The notes under the pieces: generated by a model
Told to the model about the DNA's origin: nothing
The model's database searches: none
The model's input: the letters and a program-made list of their open reading frames with translations, nothing else
Source of the DNA: a virus
Lineage: Duplodnaviria > Heunggongvirae > Uroviricota > Caudoviricetes
Length of the DNA stretch: 17,364 bases
Virus record (IMG/VR): IMGVR_UViG_2703718840_000006
Reading direction: 5' to 3' (one strand)
Position numbers and translations under genes: made by a program
Shown: positions 1 through 16,902 of the stretch, in pieces
How the letters are laid out: each line of letters starts with the position of its first letter
Numbering within the stretch: position 1 is the stretch's first letter

Positions 1-897
1 CTATGACTTGCTGTTTTCAGTAAGAGTCTTATCATCCAAAGAATTTATTCTAGAAATTCTTTTTAACTCATTAAGATAATCAACCTCGTTTTCTAAGAAC
101 CAATGAAGAACTTTAGAATTGCCAAGTAATTTATTAATATATGACTGGATTATAACGAATTTCAACATATCTGAACCATACTCGGTTTGAAGCTTTTTCG
201 TTTCTTCCGAAGTTGTTGCCATTTCTTGTTCCAGACGAAGTATGGTTTTTTTTATGTCCTTTTTATAGGGAGTGTTTTTCCCTTTATTTACTATCATCGA
301 TGCCGGTGTTGCATCCAAGATGCTCATTGCAAATTTTTTACTATAATTATCAAAATTAATCATTGTACCGACTGCTTCAATTTGGCGAATTGGCTTCATT
401 TTCCTCAAAACGTCAAATGTAGCCTTAGGTATATGTTTATCAGAAAGTTTCGCAATTACACTTGGATCTATGCCGTTCATCACATTCGCTTTATCTTTTA
501 TGGCATCAACAGATATGCCCAAAGCAGCACTAAGTTTTTCAATTGATACTTTTGCCAGAGACTTAATTATCATTCTATGTTCTTCAACTACATTTATATG
601 ATTCACTTGTTTGTTAGGAGTGAAAGCATCATCTATGCTCGAAAGTATACATGGAGCTTTTTCTATACCTAAGTCTTTTAAAGCCTCAACCCTTAAATGG
701 CCATCAAGTATCTTAGTGACATCTTTATCTTTGTCATAGAATACTATTATTGGTTCAATAATACCTAAGCTTTCGATAGAGGTAACTATTTGATGATATT
801 TATGGCTTCGCTTTACGTTTTCTAATAATTCCTTAGATGGAATTAACTTATTAGTTTCCAGGTAAATAAAATTATCGCCAAAACGTATCTGAATCAT
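1..897 (-). CDS. ParB/Srx-family protein (ParB N-terminal domain plus HTH-like region); distal gene of a tandem ParB-like pair
   Basis: 298-aa ORF with stop at 1-3. ParB-box-like GHLRVEA within IIVFYDKDKDVTKILDGHLRVEALKDLG, then an HTH-like segment (SIEKLSAALGISVDAIKDK). Start overlaps the upstream ORF by 4 nt; AGAGG lies 8 nt upstream of the ATG. No adjacent ParA. Confidence 0.6.
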   Translation of the reverse strand: MIQIRFGDNFIYLETNKLIPSKELLENVKRSHKYHQIVTSIESLGIIEPIIVFYDKDKDVTKILDGHLRVEALKDLGIEKAPCILSSIDDAFTPNKQVNHINVVEEHRMIIKSLAKVSIEKLSAALGISVDAIKDKANVMNGIDPSVIAKLSDKHIPKATFDVLRKMKPIRQIEAVGTMINFDNYSKKFAMSILDATPASMIVNKGKNTPYKKDIKKTILRLEQEMATTSEETKKLQTEYGSDMLKFVIIQSYINKLLGNSKVLHWFLENEVDYLNELKRISRINSLDDKTLTENSKS

Positions 898-1790
898 TTT
901 AATACCTCTTTGTTTACTGGGGTTAATATCTGAGATGGTAGTTCTGAAAGATTCTCTTGTTCAAGTATATGTTGAAAGCTTTTATTCATCATTATGATGT
1001 TAAAAATCTCATTTACTATTAGTAGGTTGGTTTTTATGAATTTTGAGTTGTTATAAACAGATTTATGTTCAGCGATACTATTTTCATAAAGCTCAATCAA
1101 CTCCTCTGCAGTCATCCTTTTTGATGGTTTGTGATAATAAAATCCGGCTGCTTTTGCACCTTTATTCCCAACTGTTCTTTGATTTAGAATGTGTTTTATC
1201 TTTATAATGTCCCGACTTTTTATTAATTTTTTATCATATGCTTCGGTAAGAATATCTTGTGCTTCCTCAGTTTCACATCTTGCAAATTGCACTGCGAGAT
1301 ACAGAGGCAAATTACCCCGTTCGACTGCTGAGAGAAGTTTATGCTCTCCCTTATCAAGTAGCATATTAATACTGCTCACCCAGTTCGATGAATATCCAGT
1401 AATCTCACTTATTTCGGAGTCTGAAAGTCCTCTGATTTTCATGTCTTTAATCACCTGTAATAACTCATTAGAACGTGGTCTTCTCCTTGCAATGTTTTCA
1501 ACTAAACTCATAACGTAAGCATCTTCTTCTGATACATCTCTTATAATTGCTGGAATAATAGTTTCACCTAATGCAACGAGAGCCTCTATTCTCCCTTGAC
1601 CACAAATTAAAGCATATTTGAAATCGCCTTCATCAATAGCTCTTACGCTTATTGGCTTGCTTAATCCTCTTTTTTTTATGCTTTCCTTTATTTCTTCATG
1701 CACTACCTTATTTCTTGTTCGTGGGTTAAGAAATTTTATTTTTGCAATCTCAATTTGAATTATTGGGAATTCATTTTTTTCAGGCAGCAT
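894..1790 (-). CDS. ParB-family protein (ParB N-terminal domain, HTH, C-terminal extension)
   Basis: 298 aa. Motifs GQGRIEALVALG and LVENIARRRP in the N-terminal domain, followed by an HTH-like LSDSEISEITGYSSNWVSSINMLL. GAGGG lies 7 nt upstream of the ATG; overlaps the recombinase stop by 11 nt, suggesting translational coupling. Confidence 0.65.
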   Translation of the reverse strand: MLPEKNEFPIIQIEIAKIKFLNPRTRNKVVHEEIKESIKKRGLSKPISVRAIDEGDFKYALICGQGRIEALVALGETIIPAIIRDVSEEDAYVMSLVENIARRRPRSNELLQVIKDMKIRGLSDSEISEITGYSSNWVSSINMLLDKGEHKLLSAVERGNLPLYLAVQFARCETEEAQDILTEAYDKKLIKSRDIIKIKHILNQRTVGNKGAKAAGFYYHKPSKRMTAEELIELYENSIAEHKSVYNNSKFIKTNLLIVNEIFNIIMMNKSFQHILEQENLSELPSQILTPVNKEVLK

Positions 1791-3336
1791 ATAGTTCCCT
1801 CACTTTCATGCGAGTAATAATTTGTAGAAGTTTATCAAGATTATCAAATCTATAGAGATCTAATCGAATGTTGTTTGTTTCCGTCATGCACATTTTATTA
1901 TATTCGTTTTCAATCTTTGGTATGATATAAAAATCAAGAGGTGAAATATTTTGTGAATTCATTCGTATAACAATTGTTATGTCTGCTTTCTGTGAGTTAT
2001 CAAACCGGACTTTCCATCTAAGTTTACCTGATTTCATATGTATGCATTTAGTAACAAGGACGGAAATTAAAAACTCATCATTGATGTAAAGCATTGGGGC
2101 ATATTTATACTCGTCTATATGACAGTTACTTTTTAAAATTTCACCCTTAAAATCCTCAATTATCTCTGAGTAAAATGATCTTAGTGCTTCATTTATTTTG
2201 AGATAGCTGTAATCATGTTCTGGCTTATAACCAATCAAAGTATATGCTCTTAAAAGACCACCAAATCGGGTTCTATAAACAGAAGATGAAGGGCCTGTAT
2301 CATCTTCATCAATGATAAAGCCTGATAGTTTTCCATTAGATTCTAATTTTTGTTTTAGTTTTTCTAATAGATCTTCATTAGTCAAATGAATGGATCGGAG
2401 CTGAATTATTTCTTGAGCTTTATTGTATTTTTTCTTTGAAATAATAGGTTTATATGCCTTGTCACATCTAACCCATTCATGTTTGGGGTTTTTTACAAGC
2501 CTACTTTTTAATTTAGATGAGGTTTTGTTATATATGTTGTTTCCAATATATTTTTCATTTGTCAAAATTTGATGTATTTTTGCACGAGTCCATAATGTTC
2601 CATTTTCTGCAGGTATGTTCTGTTCATTTAATCTCTCAGCAATAATGAATTCTGGGACGTTATTATCTATAAAGAGATCATATATTCTATTTACAATTTT
2701 TATTTCATTTTTTGGTCCCGGAATTAATATTACCCTATCTGTTTGAATACTCTTTCTTTTGCGGAAACTCAATATTTCTTTAGCTATGCCATTTTCGTCT
2801 ACTAAAAGACGTCTCAGCCCATAACCAGCCATACCGCCTTGATGATAACCAAGCTTTATTAAATTTACTTGCCCTATAAATACCTTTTCAGATAGATTCC
2901 TGCTGTGATATGCAGCACTAGATCTTTTTATATTCAGTATAACAGAGGACTCTAAAGGGAAATCTTTAGTGGGTATAGGTTCGGAACAATATATAAGATC
3001 TACACCATTTCTCTCAAATAGAAAGGAATAATATGCCGCTTCATCACTATTTTGAAAACGACCAAAACGGCTCACATCATAAAATAATACAGCCTGTATA
3101 TCTATTTTCTTTTGTTCTACATCGCTAAGTAACTGCTGCAAAGAATGCCTGCCTACGATACTGACTCCGCTCTTACCTGCATCATCGTAGGTATAAGCGA
3201 TTTCCATATTGTTCTTTTCAGCATAATCTTTGATATATTCGGACTGATTATGTAAAGAATATTGCTGATGGTCGGTAGACATCCTCAAGTACTGCGCGAC
3301 CCTAACTCTATGATTTTTGTCATTTTCGCTAGCCAT
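1780..3336 (-). CDS. Large serine recombinase (resolvase catalytic domain plus recombinase domain, divergent C-terminus)
   Basis: 518 aa. N-terminal YLRMSTDHQ (catalytic Ser context) and DDAGKSG; recombinase-domain-like GYHQGGMAGYGLRR. No clear CxxC zinc ribbon seen in the C-terminal ~200 aa. GAGG lies 9 nt upstream of the ATG at 3336. Confidence 0.75.
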   Translation of the reverse strand: MASENDKNHRVRVAQYLRMSTDHQQYSLHNQSEYIKDYAEKNNMEIAYTYDDAGKSGVSIVGRHSLQQLLSDVEQKKIDIQAVLFYDVSRFGRFQNSDEAAYYSFLFERNGVDLIYCSEPIPTKDFPLESSVILNIKRSSAAYHSRNLSEKVFIGQVNLIKLGYHQGGMAGYGLRRLLVDENGIAKEILSFRKRKSIQTDRVILIPGPKNEIKIVNRIYDLFIDNNVPEFIIAERLNEQNIPAENGTLWTRAKIHQILTNEKYIGNNIYNKTSSKLKSRLVKNPKHEWVRCDKAYKPIISKKKYNKAQEIIQLRSIHLTNEDLLEKLKQKLESNGKLSGFIIDEDDTGPSSSVYRTRFGGLLRAYTLIGYKPEHDYSYLKINEALRSFYSEIIEDFKGEILKSNCHIDEYKYAPMLYINDEFLISVLVTKCIHMKSGKLRWKVRFDNSQKADITIVIRMNSQNISPLDFYIIPKIENEYNKMCMTETNNIRLDLYRFDNLDKLLQIITRMKVRELYAA

Positions 3337-3506
3337 GCACGAAACCTCATGGATGATTCAATACAATGTAGTGGATAAAATTGATCAAATTTCAACCGAA
3401 TTCAACTGTTTTATCATTGATTAGAGCGAATTTGGTAGATCTTCGAGGTGTATGATAATCGAGAAGAGATGTGAATTATTTAGCTGATATGACCGACAGC
3501 TTTCGT

Positions 3507-3556
3507 TATGTGGACTCAATGTCCCCATTTGTAAATGGCTATGCTTAGTCCACATA
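3507..3556. repeat. Nested inverted repeat (10-bp arms TATGTGGACT/AGTCCACATA around an inner CCATTT-GT-AAATGG palindrome)
   Basis: Read directly: perfect 10-bp arms at 3507-3516 and 3547-3556, inner palindrome at 3525-3538. Lies between the integrase stop and the recombinase start. Candidate protein-binding or recombination site; no U-tract, so not a canonical terminator. Confidence 0.4.
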
Positions 3557-3618
3557 GGTTAATGGTGTGATTATTAATTCTTTAACTAAATCAAGATAGT
3601 TAATCCATCATGGGAGAG

Positions 3619-4848
3619 TTATGCGGCAATAACTTTGCATTTTTGAGACGAAACATAGTCACTCCACCATTGCATGAGAACCACCCGTTCAGTGAGATAC
3701 TCTGCACGATTGTAGGCTGCAATTATTTCATCTTTCTTCGAGTGGGCAAGGGCGGCTTCTAAGACATCAGTCCTAAACTTGCCAGACTCCTCAGCAGCCG
3801 TTCTAGCAATGGATCGCATACCGTGAGCTACAAGCTCACCTCCGAAACCCATACGGATTATGGCCGCATTAGCTGTTTGTTCATGCATGTGATTGAGTGG
3901 AGCTTTGATACTGGGGAACACCCACTCTCTATGCCCGCTGATGACTTTCATTAAATCCAAAACTCGCAAAGCTTCTTTGCTCAGTGGAACTTTGTGAGGC
4001 TTCTTCATTTTCATAAACTCCGCCGGGATGTTCCACATGCCAGTTTCAATATCAATATCTGACCATCTTGTGCGAACAGCTTCACCTGGGCGAACCCATG
4101 TGAGAAGTTGCCACTCAATCAGTAGCCTTGTTTCCAAACGGATAGAAGCATTGTTTAGAGCAACCAAGAAGCGAGGGAGTTCGGAAGGGGGTAATGCTGG
4201 CATATTCTGTTTTTTTGGCTTGCTGAACCGTTGCCCCAGGTTGTCTGCCGGGTTGAATTCTATGAGTTCTTCTGTTGCTGCATAGCGGAAAATTTCATTC
4301 AGGCGGGATATGATGCGGCGAAGTGTTTCAAGGACACCTCGTTTTTCTATGGGTTCTAAATGCTGTTTAAGCATTTTAGGGCGAATCTCCTTAATTGGGG
4401 TATCACCCAATGTGGAAAAGATATTTCTCTCTAGGCTTCGCCAGATGTCGTTAGCATGATCTTGGGAGATGCCTGACGTTTTGACTTTCTCATCAAGCCA
4501 CTTCTTGGCTACTGCTTGAAATGTATGTTCCGTGGCATCTTTCAGTGCATTGGCTTTTTGGTTGTTATGAACTTGGGGGTCTATACCATTTGTAAGCAAC
4601 GACAAGTATTCATCACGTAAAGCTCGTGCCTTCGCAAGTGTAAGGTGAGGATAGGTTCCTAAGCTCACCTTAGTTCGCTTTTTGGTCACAGGCACTGCAT
4701 ATCTGAAATACCAATTTTTCTTCCCTCCCTTCGCCAGGGGAGCGATTCGCAACAGCAAACCATCGCCGTCAAAAAGGTTAACCTCTTTTTCGGCAGGTTT
4801 GGTGCTTTTGATTTCAGTGTCAGTGAGCTTCTTAGCGATTTTGGCCAT
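3619..4848 (-). CDS. P4-type tyrosine integrase (arm-binding N-terminal domain plus catalytic domain)
   Basis: Start chosen at the internal ATG (4846-4848, MAKIAKKLTDTEIK) with GAGGG upstream; the track ORF extends to 4929 with a non-canonical start. N-terminal KLTDTEIKSTKP...LFDGDGLLL...WYFRY is typical of P4-like integrases; C-terminal HGMRS and AAYNRAEY supply the HxxR and catalytic Tyr. Lies immediately downstream of the ssrA 3' fragment, same orientation. Confidence 0.85.
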   Translation of the reverse strand: MAKIAKKLTDTEIKSTKPAEKEVNLFDGDGLLLRIAPLAKGGKKNWYFRYAVPVTKKRTKVSLGTYPHLTLAKARALRDEYLSLLTNGIDPQVHNNQKANALKDATEHTFQAVAKKWLDEKVKTSGISQDHANDIWRSLERNIFSTLGDTPIKEIRPKMLKQHLEPIEKRGVLETLRRIISRLNEIFRYAATEELIEFNPADNLGQRFSKPKKQNMPALPPSELPRFLVALNNASIRLETRLLIEWQLLTWVRPGEAVRTRWSDIDIETGMWNIPAEFMKMKKPHKVPLSKEALRVLDLMKVISGHREWVFPSIKAPLNHMHEQTANAAIIRMGFGGELVAHGMRSIARTAAEESGKFRTDVLEAALAHSKKDEIIAAYNRAEYLTERVVLMQWWSDYVSSQKCKVIAA

Positions 4849-5014
4849 GTTTGGGACCCTCGATTTTAGGACCCATCTTCGTGGGTCCCATTCAGGGTGC
4901 CATAACTCGTAGTTCTCAGCAATTCTCACTAGACTACAATAGACGTAAAAAAGCCCGCAGAGCTTGTGCTGTGCGGGCTTAGTAGACTTTACTGAACTTC
5001 AGTACATCAATATT

Positions 5015-5047
5015 TGGTGGAGCTGGCGGGAGTTGAACCCGAGTCCG
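5015..5047 (-). ncRNA. ssrA: 3'-terminal fragment of tmRNA gene ssrA (T-arm, acceptor 3' strand, CCA); integration-site core copy, not a full gene
   Basis: Minus-strand read CGGACTCGGGTTCAACTCCCGCCAGCTCCACCA matches my recollection of the E. coli tmRNA 3' end (GGGTTCAACTCCCGCCAGCTCCACCA). The adjacent upstream sequence is AT-rich and unrelated to tmRNA, and would overlap the methyltransferase CDS, so only the terminal ~33 nt are present. Confidence 0.75.
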
Positions 5048-5119: not shown

Positions 5120-6019
5120 TTATGTCTGGATGTGGTCGTCAACACATCCTCTTTTAAATATAGGCGCTTTTACCTTAGTTGGATCATCTGTTTTAAAGAT
5201 TTTCAATCGTTCACTGAAGAACATTACCTCAGATCCTTTGTACCGATCTTGAGCACTGTAGTTTATTCCATATACTAATGATGATGTCTTATACATAGCT
5301 TGGATCTCAGGAGTGTTATCGTAAGAAACAATCCAAGGCGTTTTAATATTATTCTGTACGACTTTTGCAACCCTAACATGATCATCATGATCATAATGGT
5401 TGATATATAAACCTTTACCTTTTATGTAATAAGGTGGATCCAAATATGTTAATGAGTTTTGTGGCAATTGAATAACTATTTTTTTTATGAAATCAATTGC
5501 ATCCATGTTATATAAATCTATTCTGTGACGATTTTCTGATATTTTATGGATTCGAGAAATCAAATCACTCTTATTATAGCGAGCGTCAAGCTTCCATTTC
5601 CCTTCTTGATTTTTACCGCCAATTACACCACCTTTTAATATTCCAGAACGATTTGTTCTATTGAGAAAAAAGGTTGAGAAACCAATTGTTAAAAGATCAT
5701 GGTCTTTAGGATTATTAATTATATCTTTCTGCCTAAACCATTCATCCATTGTAACTTCTGTTCTTTCAATTAAAGAACATAATTGATCTGCATGATTTAA
5801 TACACTGTGCCAAAAAGCATAAACAGAAATATTAATATCATTAAGGATGATTTTTTCAGCTGCATTTAGATGTAACAGTTTCAATGCTAAACCAGCACCC
5901 CCAGCATATGGTTCGGCATAATGTATAGGCGAAAGATTATTTTCTTCAATAATCCGAAGCATGAAATTTGCAAGCTTGCCTTTACCGCCAGGATAGCGAA
6001 GTGGGGTGTTAAAACGCAT
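5120..6019 (-). CDS. Dam-family (D12 class) N6-adenine DNA methyltransferase
   Basis: 299 aa. Motifs in Dam order: LRYPGGKGK, YAEPYAGGAGLA (AdoMet-binding), FFLNRTNRSG, YLDPPYY (catalytic DPPY). GAGG lies 6 nt upstream of the ATG at 6019. Target sequence cannot be read from sequence. Confidence 0.85.
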   Translation of the reverse strand: MRFNTPLRYPGGKGKLANFMLRIIEENNLSPIHYAEPYAGGAGLALKLLHLNAAEKIILNDINISVYAFWHSVLNHADQLCSLIERTEVTMDEWFRQKDIINNPKDHDLLTIGFSTFFLNRTNRSGILKGGVIGGKNQEGKWKLDARYNKSDLISRIHKISENRHRIDLYNMDAIDFIKKIVIQLPQNSLTYLDPPYYIKGKGLYINHYDHDDHVRVAKVVQNNIKTPWIVSYDNTPEIQAMYKTSSLVYGINYSAQDRYKGSEVMFFSERLKIFKTDDPTKVKAPIFKRGCVDDHIQT

Positions 6020-6053
6020 ATGATACCTCTAAATGTCAGATCTAAAGTATATC

Positions 6054-6092
6054 AAAAAAAGGGCTTTATGGCCATCACATAAAACCCTTTTT
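6054..6092. terminator. Bidirectional intrinsic-terminator-like hairpin between the ATPase and methyltransferase genes
   Basis: A7 (6054-6060), stem GGGCTTTATG / CATAAAACCC (one mismatch) with 7-nt loop (6061-6087), then T5 (6088-6092). On the minus strand the hairpin is followed by a U7 run. Confidence 0.45.
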
Positions 6093-6098
6093 AATCAA

Positions 6099-7832
6099 TT
6101 AGTTATCTGACAGATATGATGAGATGGTAGCAGAATCGACACCATGTCCACTTATCATAATAACTTTAAGACTCTTTATTAGTTCATTCTTGAAGCTATC
6201 CGATTGCACAGGATTTTTCTCGACCCAATATCGATATGGGTTATCTTTAACTCGTCCTTTGACTTGGTCCTGAAATTGAGTCGTATGTGCAAAATCTTTA
6301 AACAGTTTTCTCACTCTCCCGCCATGATTTTTGTTAACTTTTTTATAATTATCTATAAGGATTTTTAAATCAATCGGAGCGTTACCAATCTTTAGCGTTG
6401 TAATTATGTCTTTAGCTGTTTTCATAAAAACAGATTTTGTAAATTTATTTTTATTTTCCCAATATGCATCATCAGGTGGTAAATTATATAAAAACTCAAA
6501 AATCATTTGGTCTGGAGGTAAGGTGCTTGGAAGCAAACATAAGTTTTTTTCTTTTTTGGCTTTTTTTGCATTAGCACTGTTGTCGTGAACAACATCACCG
6601 TCTAAGACGATCAAGCTTTTAGCTGTAAATTCTGGTATTTTTCTTGCCATTAAGTCAAGCATGGCAGAGCAGCTAATATTTATATTTCCTAATGGATTTA
6701 ATATTTTATTTATTTTTCGATCTGTTATCAATTGTTTGAAAAAGTCGAAACCTTCTTTGTCTTCAAAATATACATTTGCTTTTGGAAGACAAATGTCATC
6801 ATTAATTTTTACAGTTTCAACATGTAAATCAGCGTGGATATCTGTCCATGAAAGATTATTCTTTGTTTTAATATCTCCATATGTGTCTGTAAGATATATT
6901 GTTTTAAAGCTATCACTATCTTGTTTTGAACGATTATAGATATCCTCTATTATTAATGGAGAGTGCGAGGTCATGATTATTTGCAGATCGTATTGTTTTG
7001 CTGCTTTAGTTAGAATATTAATTAGCTCTAACTGTGCAGCAGGGAAAAGACCTGCATCGGCTTCATCAATTAACAATATTCCGCCATGATAATCAGAATA
7101 AGTTTCCTTCAATCTTTTAAATGAAAAAATTGCTTGGATTAATTGTCCAACATTATCTTCACCAACAGATACTGATTGGTGATCATAATTGTCACCATGG
7201 ACAACCATTGAATCGATAGTACCTTTTGTTGCTGTTACTGAGCTTCCATTGTTTTTTAGTAAGAGTTGGTTACTCATCATTCTGATTTCATCAGAATTTT
7301 CATTGATGTACTGAACATCCCGTGTTGAGTAATCAGTCCTTAATGTAATAGGAAGAAGTCGTGCTAAGCTTAAAAAAATAACAGGATGAGTAACGTTTCT
7401 ACTTTGGTTTTTTTCCGGTATTGAATCATTTCCCCTGACTACAGGCCTTGATTTATCTCTGTCACTGTAGCTGTATAAACCTAATGTTAGTTTTTCAAGA
7501 TGTTTGTTCGATGCACCATCATAGACACTAATTTTGACGTCCATTGAACCAGGAACATCAAATTGTTCTGAAAGCCTAAAATGTTCGCTGAAAGCTGACT
7601 TGAAGCTGCCATTTGTTAATGTTTTATATTGTGTTAAATCAGTCTCAGGGTTTTTGGTAAAGTCCTTTGTAAAGCTAAATATTTGGGCGATAATGCCAAG
7701 AATTGTGGATTTAGATGTGCCATTTTTACCACAAATAACAGTTAGGCGAGAACCAAACTCGATGTTTATATTTTTCAGTCCGCGAAACTTCACAACATTT
7801 ATATTTTTTAGTTTGGTAATTTGATTTGCCAT
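6099..7832 (-). CDS. ABC/SMC-type ATPase with TOPRIM-like C-terminal region (OLD-family or fused PARIS-like nuclease candidate)
   Basis: Walker A GKNGTSKST, Walker B ILLIDEAD, H-loop IMTSHSP. The C-terminal ~250 aa contain FEDKEG and LDGD acidic motifs about 55 residues apart, consistent with TOPRIM (not verified). Start placed at internal ATG 7832 (MANQITKLKNI; GGAG upstream; Walker A then sits at the usual distance); the track ORF starts at 7883 with no SD. Confidence 0.7.
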   Translation of the reverse strand: MANQITKLKNINVVKFRGLKNINIEFGSRLTVICGKNGTSKSTILGIIAQIFSFTKDFTKNPETDLTQYKTLTNGSFKSAFSEHFRLSEQFDVPGSMDVKISVYDGASNKHLEKLTLGLYSYSDRDKSRPVVRGNDSIPEKNQSRNVTHPVIFLSLARLLPITLRTDYSTRDVQYINENSDEIRMMSNQLLLKNNGSSVTATKGTIDSMVVHGDNYDHQSVSVGEDNVGQLIQAIFSFKRLKETYSDYHGGILLIDEADAGLFPAAQLELINILTKAAKQYDLQIIMTSHSPLIIEDIYNRSKQDSDSFKTIYLTDTYGDIKTKNNLSWTDIHADLHVETVKINDDICLPKANVYFEDKEGFDFFKQLITDRKINKILNPLGNINISCSAMLDLMARKIPEFTAKSLIVLDGDVVHDNSANAKKAKKEKNLCLLPSTLPPDQMIFEFLYNLPPDDAYWENKNKFTKSVFMKTAKDIITTLKIGNAPIDLKILIDNYKKVNKNHGGRVRKLFKDFAHTTQFQDQVKGRVKDNPYRYWVEKNPVQSDSFKNELIKSLKVIMISGHGVDSATISSYLSDN

Positions 7833-7890
7833 GTTTGTATCTTGCTCCGTAAAATGGCCACAAATTGTGGCCAATAGTTTCATGCTTGGA

Positions 7891-9057
7891 TTATATTGTT
7901 ATCTTCTTCAAGCTTGTTTGTCCATCATATTCCTTCAGATATGAGCCATAGTGCCTGAAAAGCATCTCCGGTCCTTTATGCCCCATTTGAGCTGCAAGCC
8001 AAAACAGGTTTGCTCCTCGGCTGATATGGCTGGTGGCGAATGTATGCCTGGTTTGATATGGATTTCTGTATCGAATACCTGCTTTCCGCAATGTTGGAAC
8101 CCATGCTTTTTTCCTGATTGCATCAGCACTTGCCCAAGGCTTATTGGTCTTTGGGTCTTCAAAGACAGTAGCATCCTTCATGAATGTAAATGGCTTCTGA
8201 TTTATCAGCGCCAACATTGCTTCTTCTGTCAGTTCAACTTTACGAGTACCTGCTTTTGTCTTTGTCCCTTTGATAACACCGACAACACTTGCGCTCTGGA
8301 CATGGGCAGTTTTTCCAACAAAGTCGATATCACGCCATCGAAGGGCACATAATTCAGAACTACGCAGGCCTGTATGTATAGCGAACCGGAACAGATTCTC
8401 CCATTGTTTGTTTCCGGCTGCTGCTAGTAATGCATCAACTTCTGCTGGTGATAGCGGATCAACCACGTAGCTGCTTTCTGCTTCTGACTTATCACTTTGG
8501 TAGCGCGAAGCAGTTACCAACGATACGGGGTTAATTTGAAGTACCCCATCGGTTACGGCTTCATCAAGTGCTGACCGCAGGAAAGATAACTGGTTGCGAA
8601 TTGTTTTTAAGGTCGTTTTCTGGCTTTGAATCCACGCTTTCAGGATTGCTGGTGTTAATTCACTTGCAGGGCAAATGTGGAGTGAGGCTAACGCACTACG
8701 GCATTTTTTATAACCACCAATCGTTGAGGGTGAGAGTTTTCTCGTTTCGCAGATTTCAAGGTATTCGTCCAAGTACATTTTTACCGTTTTGCCTGCAGCA
8801 GCATTACCAAAAATTTTCAAACGAGCAGAACGGGGAAAATATTCCGCATAAATGAATGTTCCCCTTTCGATCTTATTATGAATTTCGCCGAGTGTGCGCT
8901 CGGCGTATTTAATGTTCTTTGGTGTTACTTCCAGATTGGAAAGAGGCTCACGACATTTAACTCCTTTATAGGTGAAAGTTATATTGATCGTTTCGCCCTG
9001 GCGGTGTTTCCTGATTGTTACGCCGCGCGGTAGTTTGAGCAGTTTTGTCTGGCCCAT
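7891..9057 (-). CDS. int: Lambdoid-type tyrosine integrase
   Basis: 388 aa. C-terminal catalytic signature QTRHTFATSH...GH...RHYGSY. Preceded by an overlapping excisionase-like gene. Transcribed toward the ssrA-derived att side, as in lambda. Confidence 0.85.
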   Translation of the reverse strand: MGQTKLLKLPRGVTIRKHRQGETINITFTYKGVKCREPLSNLEVTPKNIKYAERTLGEIHNKIERGTFIYAEYFPRSARLKIFGNAAAGKTVKMYLDEYLEICETRKLSPSTIGGYKKCRSALASLHICPASELTPAILKAWIQSQKTTLKTIRNQLSFLRSALDEAVTDGVLQINPVSLVTASRYQSDKSEAESSYVVDPLSPAEVDALLAAAGNKQWENLFRFAIHTGLRSSELCALRWRDIDFVGKTAHVQSASVVGVIKGTKTKAGTRKVELTEEAMLALINQKPFTFMKDATVFEDPKTNKPWASADAIRKKAWVPTLRKAGIRYRNPYQTRHTFATSHISRGANLFWLAAQMGHKGPEMLFRHYGSYLKEYDGQTSLKKITI

Positions 9058-9224
9058 TTTGCAACCTCACTAAGATCAATCCACCTCTCCTTAACGCCTT
9101 CAACCTTTAAAACCTGAACACCTTCACGCCAAACACCGCGCTGTACACGTTTGTTTATTGCTTCAGGAGTTTCGCCAGTTTCTTTGCAATAAGTTGAGAT
9201 TGGAACACAATCGAGGTTCAGCAT
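9018..9224 (-). CDS. xis: Excisionase-like small DNA-binding protein (recombination directionality factor candidate)
   Basis: 68-72 aa; ATG at 9224 with GGAG 7 nt upstream (the track start at 9236 is GTG). Winged-helix-like pattern (ISTYCKETGETPEAINKRVQRGVW...WIDL); overlaps the int start, the classic xis-int arrangement. Family assignment by pattern only. Confidence 0.55.
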   Translation of the reverse strand: MLNLDCVPISTYCKETGETPEAINKRVQRGVWREGVQVLKVEGVKERWIDLSEVAKWARQNCSNYRAA

Positions 9225-9283
9225 ATGTTTCTCCACTTAGCCCGCTGCACACGGGCAGTAATATCAAATTCCAGTCCTGATAA

Positions 9284-9499
9284 TTAATTTTGTTCCCTGG
9301 TTGCTACCTGTTTTATTGGCCTGATGCTGTCCAGTAGCAGACGGCGACGCATGTTAGGTGCACCCCAACGGTAACCAGTCTTTTTGTCGTAGGATTCACA
9401 ACGTCCGGCAACCCAGGACGTTTCAGTGGAATGTAATTTCATCCGCTTTTCACCGTCTCGGGTGATAACAATTCCTGTATGAGTTTTTATCACGCTCAT
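9284..9499 (-). CDS. Hypothetical small phage protein (position of yfdT in KplE1-like operons)
   Basis: 71-aa ORF overlapping the upstream gene by 4 nt (operon context). No motif recognised. Confidence 0.45.
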   Translation of the reverse strand: MSVIKTHTGIVITRDGEKRMKLHSTETSWVAGRCESYDKKTGYRWGAPNMRRRLLLDSIRPIKQVATREQN

Positions 9500-9858
9500 T
9501 TCTTAGTCTCTGGTGCTTTCGGCATTACTGCCCAGTGAGTGATATTGACGTTTTCAAGGTCCCCGACCTGAAATGTCCACTGCCATTCTCCGGTTTCTTT
9601 TTGTCCCCAGGTGTACCAGAGAGAACGCCAGCCAATCAGCCAGCCTTCTCCGTTAGCATCAAATAACAGAACACTTTCATTTGCTGGAGGCAGTTCAGCT
9701 GACACTGGTATTATTTTGCTTTCCAGTGCCGCACATTTAGCTTCAAGCGCGTCGAATTTACGTACCAGGTACTCAGCATTTGTTTCGTTCACTTTCAGAT
9801 CTCGCGGTACACATTTCCCGCGAAGAAACCCTTCCATTTCGAAAACATTCATGCGCAT
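9496..9858 (-). CDS. DUF551-like phage protein (YfdS-like by size and synteny)
   Basis: 120 aa; Trp-rich C-terminus (GWLIGWRSLWYTWG...ITHWAVMP) resembling DUF551. Same size and operon position as E. coli yfdS, from memory. Confidence 0.5.
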   Translation of the reverse strand: MRMNVFEMEGFLRGKCVPRDLKVNETNAEYLVRKFDALEAKCAALESKIIPVSAELPPANESVLLFDANGEGWLIGWRSLWYTWGQKETGEWQWTFQVGDLENVNITHWAVMPKAPETKK

Positions 9859-10385
9859 TTGCGTAATTCCGATAATTCGTTAAAGCGTTTCATAAACATC
9901 CCGTAGGCATGGCCTGGAGCCAGTGGAATAACTTTGAACATCTCTGTTGCCGGGATACCTTCCAGTACAGGCCAGAAAGAGCCATCATCAAGCCCGAGAT
10001 CGCGGCGTTCGGTTGCCAGCATGATGAGATCGGCATATTTCACGGGCGTGCTCATAACCGGGGGTAACCCGTATTTCTCACGGATGACGACGTCTATTTT
10101 TTCTTCCATCCGTTTATAGTCAGGAAGAAGTCGTTTCAGTGGTGCGGGGATGTCCTGGCAATACGCTTCTGTTGCATCATGCATTAACGCTTCAAAAGCA
10201 AATTCCTGCGGCACCAGCTGGCTGCAAAGCACTGCATGCTGGGCGACACTGTAGAAGTGTGAAAGATGTCCTGCAAAGCGACAGATATTTGAAAGGGAAA
10301 CCGCGATATCGTTAATCACGATGTCGTCTTTATTTATCTTGTCATAATAAAAATGCTTCCCGGAAAAAGTTTTAATAAATGACAT
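9849..10385 (-). CDS. HD-domain phosphohydrolase (YfbR/YfdR-like 5'-deoxynucleotidase family)
   Basis: HD motifs (SHFYSVAQHAVL; LMHDATEAY). Start placed at ATG 10385 (MSFIK; GGAG 7 nt upstream), giving 178 aa, the size I recall for YfdR; the track ORF starts 9 codons earlier. Confidence 0.75.
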   Translation of the reverse strand: MSFIKTFSGKHFYYDKINKDDIVINDIAVSLSNICRFAGHLSHFYSVAQHAVLCSQLVPQEFAFEALMHDATEAYCQDIPAPLKRLLPDYKRMEEKIDVVIREKYGLPPVMSTPVKYADLIMLATERRDLGLDDGSFWPVLEGIPATEMFKVIPLAPGHAYGMFMKRFNELSELRKCA

Positions 10386-10512
10386 TTTGTTCTCCACGTA
10401 TATGCGCTGCACCGCGCTGAATTTTGGTTAAAGAAAACCCTCGCCATCAGGCGATTATTGAGTCAATTATGTTTCCATAAATGCCCCCGCAGGGGCATTT
10501 GCAGTAAGGAAA

Positions 10513-11337
10513 TCAGGCGGTAAAAGTACCAATAAAGGTTTCTACTTTGCTGTCTTTGAATTTCTCAACAAGCAGATCACGAAATTCGTTAGCCATTTCT
10601 TCCTGCACTGCTTCCAGCTGAATAATGCGCAGAACCAGTACCGGACGATCGCCAGTGATAATGCTGAGGCGTAATTTAAACGGACGTTCTTTCAGGCCTT
10701 CAAACGGAACGCATTTAAATTCAAATGCCACTGGCATAATGTCTTTGGTCTTCGCTTCGACAGATTCCATCAGGGAGCGTTTGCCGCTGAAGTCATTATC
10801 TTCAAAATCAGCGGTCTGGTTTGCTTCAATCGTGATTTTACGGACTGCCGCAGCCGCTTTTGTTGCCTGAATGGCGTCACCATTAGCATCAAAGCCCACA
10901 AGGTAGTCGGCCCAGTCTTCAATCCATTCTGCCAGTGACTTCTGGGAGTTACGCTCGCCGTTAACAGACAACAGGGCAGAGAACGGTGCTGTCTTTTTCA
11001 GTTTGAGAGTGGCAGTGTTATCTGCGTGACCTGGCTCATCAATAGTACCCAGGTTAAGCACACTGACGGCACGCATATTATCGGCATCGATAAAGCAGCG
11101 GGTGCCTTCATCTGCAAGATCTTTAGAATAACGGGTAAAGTCATCGATGCTGGCAGTGGAAAGCGCACCACGGAAACGGAAACGATTTAAATTAAATTTT
11201 TCCAGATCATGAATGCGGAAATTCTCAGGCAATGCCACAGCATCGGCACCAATCTTACTGATAATTTCATTAACACCCTGAGCAGAAATAAGGGCATGGA
11301 TTTGATTAATTGCGGTTGCGTCTAAGTTCTGAGACAT
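10513..11337 (-). CDS. DUF2303-like phage protein (YfdQ-like by size and synteny)
   Basis: 274-aa ORF, the size I recall for E. coli YfdQ, in the same operon order. No catalytic motif recognised. Confidence 0.6.
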
Positions 11338-11402
11338 AATAAGTCCTCACTATATAAAGATATTCAGTGATGAGATAAATAATCAGTTTATTAAGTATGA
11401 TA

Positions 11403-11765
11403 TTAACGACCTGCTGCGCGGAGTTTTCCGTCAGGTTCACCGGCAAGAGTCAGTAATTGTCCCTGGTCTTCCTGCAGAATAGTCAGGCGACCACCGCGAT
11501 TGACATACATCGGCGTTTCGGTGGTGTCTTCTTCGGAAATTTTCCCGCGGTTAGTCGGGCGAACATATGAGAGTTTGTGTTTGATTTTCACACGGTTCTC
11601 ATCAAATGGTTCGATTTCCAGGTTGAGTGAGACCTTACCTTTGGTTTTCGTGTTCATCACACCGGAAGCGACTTCACTGAGAACTGCGCCGATTTTTGTT
11701 TCAAATACGCCGCCGTCCAGCTCCCCGATAAATGCCTGCACATCAGTACTGCGTTCGCTAGCCAT
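11403..11765 (-). CDS. Hypothetical early-left phage protein (YfdP-like by size and synteny)
   Basis: Start set at the internal ATG (MASERSTDVQAF) with AGGAGC 7 nt upstream, giving 121 aa. The 197-aa track ORF has a Cys/Arg-rich N-terminal extension that overlaps the leader and looks non-genic. Confidence 0.55.
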   Translation of the reverse strand: MASERSTDVQAFIGELDGGVFETKIGAVLSEVASGVMNTKTKGKVSLNLEIEPFDENRVKIKHKLSYVRPTNRGKISEEDTTETPMYVNRGGRLTILQEDQGQLLTLAGEPDGKLRAAGR

Positions 11766-12373
11766 TTTGTTGCTCCTCATCATATCGACCCTGCAAGGCC
11801 GATTAGTTTCTCCACAAAACAGAGAAGAACACCTGCGGTGGCAGCCGCCCGGATGGATTGGGTTATGAGCCCGTCGTCCGGTGATGCTCTTCTCTGTTTT
11901 GTAAAAAGAGCGGTACCAGCCGGAAGCAAGTGTACAAACTGGTACCGCCAAAGCAGTGGCTGTTGTGGTGGGGTTGTCACTCAGGCGTATGGTCAACCTG
12001 ACAATCCGGTGTCCTCAACGGGGAAAGAGTAACCCCGCCATACTTACCGCCGCGCCATTTCGCGGATGACCACAACGCTGAGAGCACTTAGCCAGTTACG
12101 GCACCACACTTTGTCGCGGCTCCATAAATGCCCTCATCGTTGCACCCTGGTCTCTTCCCAGGCGTCAAACCGGATCGCCACGCTGGTTAGGCGTCTTATC
12201 AGCATCATCATTGACTTGCACATTCCGGCTACCTGGTTTGTTTGCCCTAGCAAGGAGTGGATTGTCCCCTTTAACGTCCCCAGACCGCTAACGACGCATG
12301 TGCCATACGCCGTGTTACAACCAAATTTTGTTAGTACCTTGTTTGTTGGTCTGGAAAGAAAGATAAAATGAAA

Positions 12374-12411
12374 TTGCGCGTTGTGCAAGTGCTTTGTTGC
12401 GGGATATGCAA
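12374..12411. promoter_or_regulatory. Candidate OL operators: two 15-bp TTGC-N7-GCAA sites, with probable leftward pL
   Basis: TTGCGCGTTGTGCAA (12374-12388) and TTGCGGGATATGCAA (12397-12411); the first is nearly identical to an OR site (TTGCGCGTTAAGCAA, 13180-13194). Just downstream of the cI terminator, as in lambdoid immunity regions. Confidence 0.45.
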
Positions 12412-12428
12412 TTTAATGGGTAATGAAA

Positions 12429-12446
12429 AGCCACCTTCGGGTGGCT
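12429..12446 (-). terminator. Intrinsic terminator downstream of cI
   Basis: Perfect 7-bp stem AGCCACC/GGTGGCT with TTCG tetraloop; on the minus strand it is followed by UUUUCAUU. Located 20 nt after the cI stop. Confidence 0.5.
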
Positions 12447-12466
12447 AATTGATGAGGAGGTAAGGG

Positions 12467-13159
12467 TTAATTGTGTCGCTTAAGGGTTTGTGACTGGCTG
12501 ATTAAGACCTTTCCAAAGACCATAAACCGGTGTTCATTTTCGCTGGTAATTCCCCATTCACGGTAAATCTGGTTATCAGAAATCACCAGTAGTTTGTCAG
12601 GTATCATTTGCAGTCGTTTGACATAAATTTTATCATCAAAACCAAATACATAGATACCATCTCCATCAAACTGATTGATACTGACATCAACGAAGATGAG
12701 ATCTCCTGGCTCAATGGTTGGACACATACTGTCCCCACGAACGTTGATAACTTTAATGTGATTGGCTGGTCGTCCGCCAAACATCGATACAGCATTATCA
12801 GTTCTGTATTCAATGGCATGAATCACATCAATGACATCACCGCCCTGGATAAGGCCATTTCCCGCACTGGCACTGACATCCAGCATTTCAATACGGAATA
12901 CATCCTTCACCTGCGCAACATCCTCACTAATACTGTTTTTACATACAGTATTACTTTTGAAGTCTGAGGTAAAGAGATCAGCAATATCAACACCTAAGCT
13001 CCTGGCAATATTACTCAGGGCTTGTTCAGTGAATTGTTTCTGCTTACCTGTTTCCAGGCGTGAGATATTCGCCGCATCCACTCCTATTGCTTCAGCGAGA
13101 TCGGCGATTTTCATGTTCTTCGCCTGGCGAAGTTGTCTGACTCGATTTCCTATGTTCAT
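12467..13159 (-). CDS. cI: CI-like phage repressor (HTH_XRE N-terminal domain plus S24 LexA-like autopeptidase domain)
   Basis: 230 aa. N-terminal HTH (IADLAEAIGVDAANISRLETGKQ); C-terminal S24 signature GDSMCPTI (Ser nucleophile) and downstream VKR (Lys). Divergent from a cro-like gene across an operator-rich 97-bp intergenic region. Confidence 0.9.
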   Translation of the reverse strand: MNIGNRVRQLRQAKNMKIADLAEAIGVDAANISRLETGKQKQFTEQALSNIARSLGVDIADLFTSDFKSNTVCKNSISEDVAQVKDVFRIEMLDVSASAGNGLIQGGDVIDVIHAIEYRTDNAVSMFGGRPANHIKVINVRGDSMCPTIEPGDLIFVDVSINQFDGDGIYVFGFDDKIYVKRLQMIPDKLLVISDNQIYREWGITSENEHRFMVFGKVLISQSQTLKRHN

Positions 13160-13256
13160 GCGTTTATTACATTTCTTTATTGCGCGTTAAGCAAATCAAC
13201 TTGCGCAAAATAGTTGCGTGAAATAATATGCTTATCACGCAATATGTGGAGGTTAT
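13160..13256. promoter_or_regulatory. OR-like divergent promoter/operator region between cI and cro
   Basis: TTGC-N7-GCAA site at 13180-13194, degenerate copy ATGCTTATCACGCAA at 13228-13242, palindrome TTGCGCAA at 13201-13208, inverted TTGCGTGA/TCACGCAA arms. Candidate pR: -35 TTGCGC (13201-13206), 17-bp spacer, -10 TAATAT (13224-13229). GGAGG RBS at 13248-13252 before the cro ATG. Confidence 0.55.
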
Positions 13257-13394
13257 ATGCAATCACCATTACGGAATGTGCGTAAAGCGCACGGATTTAC
13301 TTTGCAGCATGTTGCTGCGGGCGTTCAGGTCAATCCAGCGACGCTGAGTCGTATTGAAAGACAGGAACAAATTCCATCTACCGTCCATGAATGA
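13257..13394 (+). CDS. cro: Cro-like HTH protein, C-terminally truncated by a deletion junction
   Basis: 45-aa ORF not in the supplied track (too short). HTH_XRE-like segment FTLQHVAAGVQVNPATLSRIERQEQ. The ORF ends abruptly where lambda-G-like sequence begins. Confidence 0.55.
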   Translation: MQSPLRNVRKAHGFTLQHVAAGVQVNPATLSRIERQEQIPSTVHE

Positions 13395-13581
13395 AGCCGT
13401 TAAACAGATTGAGCAGGAAGTGCTTACCACCTGGCCCACGGAGGCAATTTCTCATGCTGAAAACGTGGTGTACCGGCTGTCTGGTATGTATGAGTTTGTG
13501 GTGAATGATGCCCCTGAACAGGCAGAGGACGCCGGGCCTGCAGAGCCTGTTTCTGCGGGAAAGTGTTCGACGGTGAGCTGA
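13387..13581 (+). pseudogene. G: Remnant of tail assembly chaperone G (C-terminal part only), fused to the truncated cro region
   Basis: Translation PSMNEAVKQIEQEVLTTWPTEAISHAENVVYRLSGMYEFVV...PVSAGKCSTVS matches my recollection of the lambda gpG C-terminus. ATG at 13387 overlaps the cro stop (ATGAATGA); no SD. N-terminal half of G is absent. Confidence 0.6.
13557..13563 (+). other. Programmed -1 frameshift slippery heptamer G GGA AAG (G-T frameshift site)
   Basis: GGGAAAG in the lambda X XXY YYZ register relative to the G-fragment frame (GCG GGA AAG). The downstream T-like ORF is in the -1 frame and overlaps by 19 nt. Confidence 0.6.
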
Positions 13582-13997
13582 GTTTTGCCCTGAAACTGGC
13601 GCGCGAGATGGGGCGACCCGACTGGCGTGCCATGCTTGCCGGGATGTCATCCACGGAGTATGCCGACTGGCACCGCTTTTACAGTACCCATTATTTTCAT
13701 GATGTTCTGCTGGATATGCACTTTTCCGGGCTGACGTACACCGTGCTCAGCCTGTTTTTCAGCGATCCGGATATGCATCCGCTGGATTTCAGTCTGCTGA
13801 ACCGGCGCGAGGCTGACGAAGAGCCTGAAGATGATGTGCTGATGCAGAAAGCGGCAGGGCTTGCCGGAGGCGTTCGTTTTGGCCCGGACGGGAATGAAGT
13901 TATCCCCGCTTCCCCGGATGTGGCGGACATGACGGAGGATGACGTAATGCTGATGACAGTATCAGAAGGGATCGCAGGAGGAGTCCGGTATGGCTGA
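13563..13997 (+). CDS. T: T portion of the tail assembly chaperone G-T frameshift product
   Basis: ORF in the -1 frame relative to the G fragment with no ATG of its own (track start is GTG). Sequence (FDGELSFALKLAREMGRPDWRAMLAGMSSTEYADW...GVRYG) matches my recollection of lambda gpT. Its stop overlaps an ATG GCT GAA CCG GTA (MAEPV) H-like start. Confidence 0.6.
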   Translation: MFDGELSFALKLAREMGRPDWRAMLAGMSSTEYADWHRFYSTHYFHDVLLDMHFSGLTYTVLSLFFSDPDMHPLDFSLLNRREADEEPEDDVLMQKAAGLAGGVRFGPDGNEVIPASPDVADMTEDDVMLMTVSEGIAGGVRYG

Positions 13998-14031
13998 ACC
14001 GGTACCCGGTGGTAATGGCTGCAGGGGCTGA
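13990..14031 (+). pseudogene. H: Five-codon remnant of the tape-measure gene H start (MAEPV) followed by out-of-context sequence and a stop
   Basis: ATG overlapping the T stop encodes MAEPV (lambda H begins MAEPVGDL in my recollection), then PGGNGCRG and a stop. Implies a deletion junction near 14005. Confidence 0.4.
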
Positions 14032-14239
14032 CTCAGGGCAGTGGGACGTTATGACATGGAGTGATGCTGATAATCAGCAGGTGAAACTGTCGATGACGGA
14101 ACTGGAGGAGCTGGCTGCAGCTATGGCGCAGGCGCAGGTTGATCGCAATAATGAGATTTATCGTCATCAGCGTGAAATGAAAGAGGAACTGAGCAATCTC
14201 CTGGATTTGAAGCAGGTTAGGGAGTTCAGTCCAGAATAA
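14009..14239 (+). CDS. Hypothetical ORF or gene fragment in the tail-fibre region (no ATG start, possibly a remnant)
   Basis: 76-aa track ORF with a non-ATG start, downstream of the H deletion junction. Helical-looking sequence with no recognised motif. May be the 3' end of a deleted gene. Confidence 0.3.
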   Translation: MVMAAGADSGQWDVMTWSDADNQQVKLSMTELEELAAAMAQAQVDRNNEIYRHQREMKEELSNLLDLKQVREFSPE

Positions 14240-14332
14240 GAAAAAACGTAGTACATCGTATTCAAGAGGATCTATGCTGGCATCGTAGCTGTTTTTAAAC
14301 AGTAAGTAGCCGTTGAAGGTCACAGGGGAAAA

Positions 14333-14695
14333 ATGCTCTTTGACTTGGCTTCCGGGGACGCACTATTTATCTCTGAACCAGGCCCATTAGCGGAAAATGT
14401 CACCTGGTTGTCGCCGGAAGGGGAATATCAGAAGTGGAACGGTACAGCCTGGGTGAAAGATGCAGAAGCAGAAAAACTATTCCGGATCCGGGAGGCGGAA
14501 GAAACAAAAAACAGCCTGATGCAGGTAGCCAGTGAGCATATAGCGCCGCTTCAGGATGCTGTAGATCTGGAGATCGCAACGGAGGAAGAAAATTCGTTGC
14601 TGGAAGCCTGGAAAAAGTATCGGGTGTTGCTGAACCGTGTTGATACATCAACTGCACCTGATATTGAGTGGCCGATAATTCCTGTAACATCATAG
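14333..14695 (+). CDS. tfa: Tail fibre assembly protein (lambda Tfa family, short form)
   Basis: 120 aa; ATG with AGGGGA upstream. Sequence [14 protein letters not shown]...[19 protein letters not shown]...[25 protein letters not shown] closely matches my recollection of the lambda Tfa C-terminal two-thirds. Confidence 0.8.
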
Positions 14696-14712
14696 TCATT
14701 ATTTATTTGTTT

Positions 14713-14743
14713 TGCTGACATGTTGTATACGACAACGTGTCAG
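14713..14743. terminator. 13-bp inverted repeat hairpin between convergent tfa and the HEPN gene (possible bidirectional terminator)
   Basis: GCTGACATGTTGT / ACAACGTGTCAGC arms (one G-T position) with a 5-nt loop. Flanking U-tracts are weak on both strands. Confidence 0.35.
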
Positions 14744-14807
14744 CAGTTTGACTGGTATTATAACGAATATATTGTAATGTTTTCTGGTGTTATTAATTGT
14801 TGTTTTA

Positions 14808-15761: not shown

Positions 15762-15992
15762 TCTACCTTTGGGTCTTTATTGTTGTCTATCAAGATATAA
15801 TATTCAGGCTGGAGTGGCTAATGTTGATCTACTTATTTTCTCCCGGTAAGTCAGTTTATCGCGATATAAGCCGCATTTGATTTTGGCGACTATGGTCGTG
15901 TTAGGTATGTATCTGGCGTGTTACTGCGCCAGATTAAATATAAACCAATAATATTAAAGGGTGTTACTCTCTTGACAGATTTAGGGAACAAA

Positions 15993-16187
15993 TCACTCGT
16001 CAGCTGACTCCCAAGTATCTTTCAGAGTTTCCTGAACAAAAGTTTTAGCTGAATCTTTATCGGCGGTGCGCCTAACAGAAAAACCATCGTTGCTGGTGGC
16101 TTTTACGATCATCTCCACATCGTCATAATGCTCGCCAATGTATTGGGTTAATTCTTCCTTTAATGCGTCTACAGCGCCGTTTGGCAT
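15993..16187 (-). CDS. DinI-family protein (short form)
   Basis: 64 aa. [13 protein letters not shown] and the C-terminal TWESADE match the DinI pattern (AIDALAGEL...ETWESADDWF, from memory). In-frame stop 7 codons upstream excludes a longer form. Two LexA boxes upstream. Confidence 0.75.
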
Positions 16188-16241
16188 TTGGTCATTTTGT
16201 CTTTGGCTATGGAGATCTCAATACGCATAACATTTCTTTTG

Positions 16242-16289
16242 TACTGCGTTTGTAGACAGTATTATTCTTATCTGTGTAAATAAACAGTA
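16242..16289 (-). promoter_or_regulatory. Two LexA (SOS) boxes overlapping the dinI-like promoter
   Basis: TACTGCGTTTGTAGACAGTA (16242-16261; CTGC-N8-ACAG, one mismatch) and CTGT-N8-ACAG (CTGTGTAAATAAACAG, 16272-16287). On the minus strand a TTGATA -35-like hexamer sits directly upstream of the second box. 55-100 bp upstream of the start codon. Confidence 0.55.
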
Positions 16290-16510: not shown

Positions 16511-16531
16511 ATAATGGTGTAATTAATCAGG

Positions 16532-16900: not shown

Positions 16901-16902
16901 AA

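Follow-up and report, generated by a model that had tools for sequence, protein, structure and literature searches.

The IMG/VR virus record IMGVR_UViG_2703718840_000006 (Caudoviricetes), a stretch of 17,364 nucleotides that is called the window below and that is E. coli chromosome, begins with three minus-strand genes encoding a large serine recombinase (LSR) and two ParB-family proteins, named here ParB-A and ParB-B. The features of this three-gene operon (the trio) are as follows.

1780-3336, minus strand: LSR, gene 1, an open reading frame (ORF) of 518 amino acids
894-1790, minus strand: ParB-A, gene 2, an ORF of 298 amino acids
1-897, minus strand: ParB-B, gene 3, an ORF of 298 amino acids, the stop codon of which occupies window positions 1-3
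1780-1790, minus strand: 11-nt overlap of the LSR stop and the ParB-A start, ATGCTGCCTGA, read from the sequence
894-897, minus strand: 4-nt overlap of the ParB-A stop and the ParB-B start, ATGA, read from the sequence

A GAGG Shine-Dalgarno sequence was located 6-8 nt 5' of both internal ATG codons, within the coding region of the preceding gene. An earlier reading of this DNA from its letters alone (the sequence-only reading) had described three overlapping minus-strand genes with internal Shine-Dalgarno sequences in an AT-rich block, and both points were borne out, by the ORFs and the sequence and by a GC content of 31-35% for the trio against 44-46% for the adjacent integrase gene. The motifs that it had picked out, YLRMSTDHQ, GQGRIEA, GHLRVEA and ENIARRRP, were all present in the translations, and its assignment of the products to a serine recombinase with no obvious zinc ribbon at the C-terminus and two tandem ParB-family proteins was upheld by the domain matches, residue conservation and structural model described below.

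The LSR contained the Pfam domains Resolvase (PF00239, 7.7e-22) and Recombinase (PF07508, 6e-22), the latter placed after the αE helix, and its best PHROG match was an integrase family (2.7e-69). Y16, R18, S20, D87, R90 and R93 were invariant across 49 LSR homologues, and from this invariance of the catalytic residues in the family the enzyme is expected to be active. Residues 313-518 had no Pfam match. In ordinary serine integrases, a zinc-ribbon/coiled-coil domain reads the outer half of the attachment (att) site and controls synapsis. This domain was not found in the LSR by Pfam, by Cys conservation (the 49-homologue alignment contained a single conserved Cys) or in the predicted structure. 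The structure was represented by an alignment-based AlphaFold model (predicted local distance difference test score, pLDDT, 89), with a single-sequence AlphaFold 2 model (pLDDT 31) being discarded. The retained model showed a catalytic domain, a long αE helix and a recombinase domain, followed at the C-terminus by short helices, one helix of 26 residues and then a β-rich domain. This family-specific helical and β-rich C-terminal domain of about 200 amino acids stands where the zinc ribbon and the coiled coil would be.

ParB-A matched the Pfam families ParB_N (1.6e-13) and RepB (8.5e-08) and exceeded the cutoff of TIGR00180. ParB-B matched RepB more strongly (2.7e-24), and its ParB_N score of 25.9 bits was slightly below the 26.3-bit cutoff. 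NCBIfam yielded only the generic ParB/RepB/Spo0J domain for these proteins. In ParB-A, a ParB N-terminal domain is followed by a RepB-type helix-turn-helix (HTH)/C-terminal region, and the nearest solved structures were those of Spo0J, ParB, Noc and KorB. ParB-B is composed of a divergent ParB/Srx-type N-terminal domain, which carries DGHLR, and a strong RepB C-terminal region. The conserved motifs were GxGR and ENxARR in ParB-A and DGHLR in ParB-B (66 homologues). Judging from these motifs, ParB-A seems to retain the nucleotide-binding boxes in part (GQGR, ENIARR), and those of ParB-B seem to have diverged (DGHLR). The two proteins shared about 30% identity over 63 amino acids, and they are only distant paralogues.

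An exhaustive profile search for the LSR returned 1348 clusters at 50% identity (E <1e-30), most of which were 500-545 amino acids long and aligned over the full length, including the C-terminal region. With the alignment of 49 homologues as query, 80 loci were taken from species-representative genomes, and these spanned Alpha-, Beta- and Gammaproteobacteria, Acidobacteriota, Planctomycetota, Myxococcota, Bdellovibrionota and one metagenome-assembled genome of Clostridia. The LSR identity of these homologues was 43-47%. In about 75 of the 80, the LSR was directly followed by homologues of ParB-A (33-38% identity) and ParB-B (30-38%), in that order and all on one strand; the exceptions were loci at contig ends and three that are degraded. 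Between two E. coli variants (94% DNA identity), the ratios of nonsynonymous to synonymous substitution rates (dN/dS) were 0.105, 0.070 and 0.044 for the LSR, ParB-A and ParB-B genes, respectively; all three are under purifying selection. The arrangement is not due to chance, since the same order and strand were kept in about 75 of 80 distant genomes and the dN/dS was 0.04-0.10. The trio is thus an ancient and widespread conserved unit found in at least six phyla.

Beyond the trio, nothing else was conserved in the 80 loci except small upstream genes. At least 46 of the 80 loci carried, 5' of the LSR, a divergent small HTH-like gene of about 110-140 amino acids with the motif WTGASERTAKNWLAG..GPSGEHLIAL (for example, L024:7463-7849, which is on the minus strand when the trio is taken as plus, and L100:8532-8939). 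In 12 loci from beta- and gammaproteobacteria and Acidobacteria, a zinc-finger-like gene of about 150 amino acids was found instead (for example, L096:7333-7788). Neither of these small genes belonged to a Pfam family, and both were absent from the E. coli copy.

In addition to the conserved operon, fused forms were found in the LSR family. Representatives of 755-813 amino acids, among them P0175, P0270, P0271 and P0272 as well as P0222 and P0251 (764-813 amino acids), contained the LSR and then a ParB/RepB region in one polypeptide. Four fusion clusters (773-813 amino acids) shared 52-70% mutual identity and carried precomputed Pfam matches to Resolvase, Recombinase and RepB. In both readable contexts (L304:5451-7892 and L305:407-2764) the fusion gene stood alone, with no second ParB gene. 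The conserved fusion and the conserved, translationally coupled operon argue for a physical complex of LSR and ParB, a prediction drawn from gene structure. Among other long members of the family (about 1057-1089 amino acids), P0121 and P0122 each contained two tandem LSR copies, and P0273, P0284, P0288 and P0291 had an annotated zinc-finger Pfam domain (PF13824).

That the three genes act as a unit, as proposed in the sequence-only reading, was supported by the order kept across phyla and by the LSR-ParB/RepB fusions. The absence of a ParA partner, which had been claimed for the window, also held beyond its edge. In a complete E. coli genome, the left side of the trio consisted of a spacer of about 160 bp, IS3, the tRNA-Ile gene ileY, a ygaQ-type pseudogene and glaH, with no ParA and no further island genes, and a ParA-type (deviant) Walker A motif was found in one ORF only in all 80 loci. 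The trio was therefore conserved elsewhere as a unit, and no ParA was encoded just outside the window; it is not a ParABS partition system.

In related modules with 82-93% DNA identity, the shared region was confined to the trio and its immediate surroundings: it began near the LSR start, or 0.5-1.8 kb before it, and ended 170-230 nt after ParB-B, and the flanks were unrelated on both sides. The trio behaves as a portable cassette, living among accessory and defence cargo and recombination modules, and what surrounds it is for the most part defence genes, ends of prophages or plasmid DNA.

The setting of the E. coli copy was defined by the following features of the window.

3337-3618, minus strand: integrase-LSR spacer of 282 nt, the presumed promoter and operator, containing a palindrome at 3507-3556
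3619-4929, minus strand: P4-type tyrosine integrase of the ssrA islet (NF007246, 3e-133; Pfam Arm-DNA-bind_3, Phage_int_M and Phage_integrase)
5015-5042, minus strand: ssrA 3'-end repeat, the attachment-site copy bounding the islet (exact 28-nt match, 0 expected by chance)
5120-7883: PD-Lambda-5 defence pair, a D12-class methyltransferase (PADLOC PD-Lambda-5_B, 6e-124) and an AAA_15/AAA_21 ATPase
7891-17364: decayed lambdoid prophage with its own integrase (7891-9057) and DUF551 and DUF2303 genes
12467-13159: CI-like S24 repressor of the prophage
13563-13997: tail T fragment of the prophage
14333-14695: tail-fibre assembly gene of the prophage
14454-14652, plus strand: Rfam IS009 RNA match in the prophage

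The earlier placement of the trio behind a P4-type integrase at an ssrA repeat was confirmed by the NF007246 match and the exact 28-nt repeat. This integrase is annotated elsewhere as a protein of 409 amino acids, which would put its start at 4848. The full transfer-messenger RNA (tmRNA) was not found within the window, and ssrA adjoined the same integrase in other genomes. The E. coli trio is passenger cargo of the P4-integrase islet at ssrA and is not the integration machinery of the islet, a function accounted for by the ssrA repeat together with the P4-type tyrosine integrase, which is intact. The trio islet, the PD-Lambda-5 element and the lambdoid prophage with its own integrase stand side by side, and the ssrA site therefore holds a tandem series of integrase-bounded elements; the PD-Lambda-5 pair was placed between the ssrA repeat and the lambda-type integrase. 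In the lineage of the window, IS3 interrupts the islet about 160 bp past ParB-B. In Enterobacter, where the same ssrA islet occurs, ParB-B was followed by 1.7 kb of AT-rich DNA (L308:10337-12078) with no ORF of more than 73 amino acids and no Rfam match, and then by genes for a UvrA-like ABC ATPase and two ThiF/E1-like proteins.

The 3.6-kb block carrying the trio was present as one copy per genome in 660 of 5426 complete E. coli genomes (about 12%), always on the chromosome. A second copy of the trio, with 94% DNA and 96% protein identity, was found in another E. coli island by yfdC (argW; L010:2848-20000), where it was flanked by RloB/AAA_15, DUF6119 and radical-SAM/HxsD genes (two radical-SAM genes with HxsD); this island also contained DUF1508. 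The DNA common to the ssrA and argW copies extended from window position 4177, in the 3' part of the integrase gene, to 48 bp past the ParB-B stop. The 3' 560 bp of the ssrA-type integrase gene thus accompany the trio in the argW island, just upstream of the LSR, which implied that the trio reached this island along with an integrase remnant. In some E. coli strains, the operon was interrupted by IS1, IS2 or IS5. A candidate empty site, H97, in which the integrase and the spacer appeared without the trio, proved to carry the trio after all, with IS2 inserted a short way 5' of the LSR start.

In many alphaproteobacterial loci, a non-coding element of about 110 nt was found directly after the ParB-B stop, and it was more conserved than the coding DNA (L059:9371-9500, L068:11353-11482 and about 170 other loci in alignments A4 and A5). 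RNAalifold folded the element into five helices with compensatory changes in 9 of 26 pairs. Over 101 copies, 97.9% of the cells were paired, compared with 26-41% when the partners were slid, and double changes were observed in 14 of the 26 pairs; the observed values were unreached by any shuffle. When metagenomes were scanned blind with a 25-base pattern taken from the element, 80 readable loci were obtained, 75 of them with enough upstream sequence. ParB-B was immediately upstream of the RNA in 67 of these 75 and in 2 more borderline cases, and the remaining 6 were orphans. Copies without the trio were those in L108, L117, L141, L146, L168 and L169. ARAGORN found no tRNA or tmRNA in the element, and Rfam 15 gave no credible match to a known RNA, the P2 small RNA being matched on the opposite strand only (E 0.77). 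Based on covariation and linkage, the element appears to be a new structured RNA linked to alphaproteobacterial trios. The E. coli, beta- and gammaproteobacterial and Agrobacterium copies gave no match to a covariance model of the element, and no alternative conserved downstream DNA was found in the copies that lack it.

One locus, L024, contained two direct copies of a 200-nt unit composed of the RNA and downstream hairpins (11332-11462 and 16364-16495, about 88% identical). Both begin exactly at GGGGA, and they flank an ORF of 1162 amino acids with no Pfam match and a PIN_12 gene. An integron-like array in which the element flanks cassettes was considered and rejected: among the 91 loci that extended more than 3 kb downstream, L024 alone had two direct copies; L218, a candidate for a second two-copy locus, looked like an assembly palindrome.

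Taken together, the reading that we prefer, with a probability of roughly 45%, is that the trio is a ParB-assisted site-specific recombination module with a role in mobility, resolution or rearrangement. ParB-A may be a cytidine triphosphate (CTP)-binding clamp, as suggested by its conserved GxGR and ENxARR motifs, and ParB-A and ParB-B together would bind a specific DNA site. The ParBs would recruit or license the LSR via its family-specific C-terminal domain, and the LSR would then cut and rejoin the DNA at the ParB-bound site. The outcome would most likely be movement, resolution or rearrangement of the DNA carrying the module, through which the unit would come to behave as a portable cassette. 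The support for this reading consists of the conservation of the unit, the fusions, the catalytic residues, the selection on all three genes, the cassette behaviour, the absence of ParA and the mobile-element settings.

Several observations weigh against it. The E. coli trio was single-copy across the 660 genomes, and the tyrosine integrase and homologous exchange, rather than LSR activity, account for its two locations there. Scans for repeats and palindromes revealed neither a recombination site nor paired att sites nor a site resembling parS, and no repeated palindrome family of the parS or res type was present in or around the trio. The 50-bp imperfect palindrome at 3507-3556, with a 2-nt centre and 18 of 24 matching arm positions, was the best in 5.2 kb and exceeded all 30 shuffles; as a candidate att site or operator it was rejected, since the argW copy, at 94% identity, differs from it by 10 changes that are not compensated, and it is not conserved. 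Excision or inversion by the LSR is a prediction, and CTP binding, ParB-LSR contact and the DNA target are steps that we infer. Moreover, defence genes are as abundant around the trio as around genuine defence systems.

An alternative is that the trio serves to defend against or exclude phages or plasmids and represents a system of this type that is as yet undescribed, in which the ParBs would sense or load on invading DNA and the LSR, as the effector, would break or scramble that DNA or trigger abortive infection. In the species genomes, the downstream neighbours included methyltransferases, Mokosh, DISARM DrmD, pAgo with SIR2, Hma, BrxH, Cas1, RES and PLD, and the upstream neighbours included SoFic, AbiE, GajB-like helicases, WYL proteins and some housekeeping genes. 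Such flanks in other phyla favoured a defence role, as did the RloB/AAA_15, DUF6119 and radical-SAM/HxsD company of the copy with 96% protein identity, and the position of the E. coli trio as the sole cargo of an islet in tandem with the PD-Lambda-5 element at the same ssrA hotspot. Prophage copies of the trio hold the end position typical of morons, and the distribution is patchy, horizontally spread and single-copy, with knock-outs by insertion sequences. However, PADLOC v2 had no model for the trio proteins, with no match for LSR or ParB-A and a match of ParB-B only to the ParB_N part of a methyltransferase model, and we know of no characterised defence system with a serine recombinase as its effector. 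Guilt by association is also weak here, since recombinases are themselves typical residents of such islands. We regard a defence function as a serious possibility that is nevertheless somewhat unlikely.

Slightly more doubtful is a bolder proposal, in which the trio would be a new kind of machine acting on DNA. ParB nucleotide-switch clamps would replace the DNA-reading domain of the LSR and steer the enzyme to its substrate, and the alphaproteobacterial RNA would be a fourth component; the cell or its mobile elements would employ the whole either for attacking or excluding invading DNA or for capturing and moving adjacent cargo.

Another possibility is that the prophage or island carrying the trio uses the LSR as its integrase, with the ParBs as directionality or regulatory factors or as keepers of the excised circle. 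At least 128 relatives were found in IMG/VR, and 61 of the 80 loci kept carried the full trio. In about 45 of these 61, the trio was within 4 kb of the end of the viral contig, and the 5' side of the LSR pointed toward the contig end in about 35; tail and lysis genes were often adjacent, on the opposite strand. This enrichment at proviral contig ends is what such an integrase would predict, and the divergent HTH-like gene upstream in at least 46 of the 80 species loci and the scarcity of tyrosine integrase matches (just 2 of the 123 nearest upstream ORFs scanned) agree with it. The E. coli copies speak against it, since the ssrA islet has its own intact tyrosine integrase and attachment repeat and the trio is internal in the argW island. 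In addition, phage structural genes were rare beside the trio in the 80 species genomes, the curated phage collection contained a single match, in an unverified record, and related modules had no flank in common on either side, although an integrase with a fixed place at one end of a coherent element would be expected to share one. An integrase role for the host element is accordingly improbable.

An ordinary plasmid stability module combining multimer resolution with ParB partition would account for the RepB and ParB_N domains of both ParBs and for homologues on 67 plasmids, mostly megaplasmids, including pAtC58, but it is very improbable given the lack of ParA in the E. coli flank and, apart from a single Walker A ORF, in the 80 loci, the chromosomal location of 660 of 660 E. 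coli copies, the position between AbiE and Fic genes on pAtC58, an LSR with a recombinase domain rather than a small resolvase, the absence of res or parS repeats in our scans, and the expectation that such megaplasmids would have partition genes of their own.

With respect to known systems, the ParB-assisted recombination module that we favour differs from the serine integrases and recombinases phiC31, Bxb1, A118, SPbeta SprA, TnpX and CcrAB in that its LSR contains no zinc-ribbon/coiled-coil domain and has its own C-terminal domain of about 200 amino acids, and in that it is obligately linked, and sometimes fused, to ParB/RepB proteins. To our knowledge, no characterised LSR needs ParB or RepB proteins. 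The ParBs resemble those of ParABS and RepABC systems (Spo0J, ParB, RepB), Noc and KorB in combining a ParB N-terminal fold with an HTH/RepB region, and ParB-A keeps the GxxR-type and ENxxR-type motifs of the ParB CTP switches. In contrast to ParABS and RepABC, the trio has no ParA/RepA, no RepC and no identified parS, and it encodes two divergent tandem paralogues; the GERR box of the ParB family is GQGR in ParB-A and DGHLR in ParB-B, and the operon partner is a recombinase. In concept, the closest likeness is to Sin or beta recombinase with HU/Hbsu and to an LSR with its directionality factor, where separate DNA-binding partners set the site or the direction, whereas the partners in the trio are dedicated ParB-family proteins from the same operon that are conserved across phyla, and on which the LSR would presumably depend. 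The E. coli locus is similar to defence islets such as PD-Lambda-5 in having an integrase and compact AT-rich cargo at a tRNA/tmRNA hotspot and in its neighbourhood, and it differs from them in matching no PADLOC v2 system model. No entry describing the unit or its linked RNA was found in Pfam, NCBIfam, PHROGs, PADLOC or Rfam, and literature searches returned no description of an LSR-ParB unit, the sole mention being an incidental one as a neighbour of a Stx2l prophage. The trio is best filed as a variant of the serine-recombinase systems, with a real chance of something more unusual.

Serine integrases are major genome-engineering tools, and the zinc-ribbon/coiled-coil domain is believed to determine which sites they choose and in which direction they act. 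An LSR family that has no zinc ribbon and is paired or fused with ParB would be a new solution for recombinase targeting and control and, if the proposed mechanism is true, would give ParB-family switches a new job beyond the segregation of chromosomes and plasmids. If the trio instead serves in defence, bacterial immunity would gain a mechanism that is based on a recombinase. The RNA motif linked to the alphaproteobacterial trios would itself be a new structured RNA. Since the trio spans a compact 3.3 kb and about one complete E. coli genome in eight carries it, it is directly accessible to experiment.

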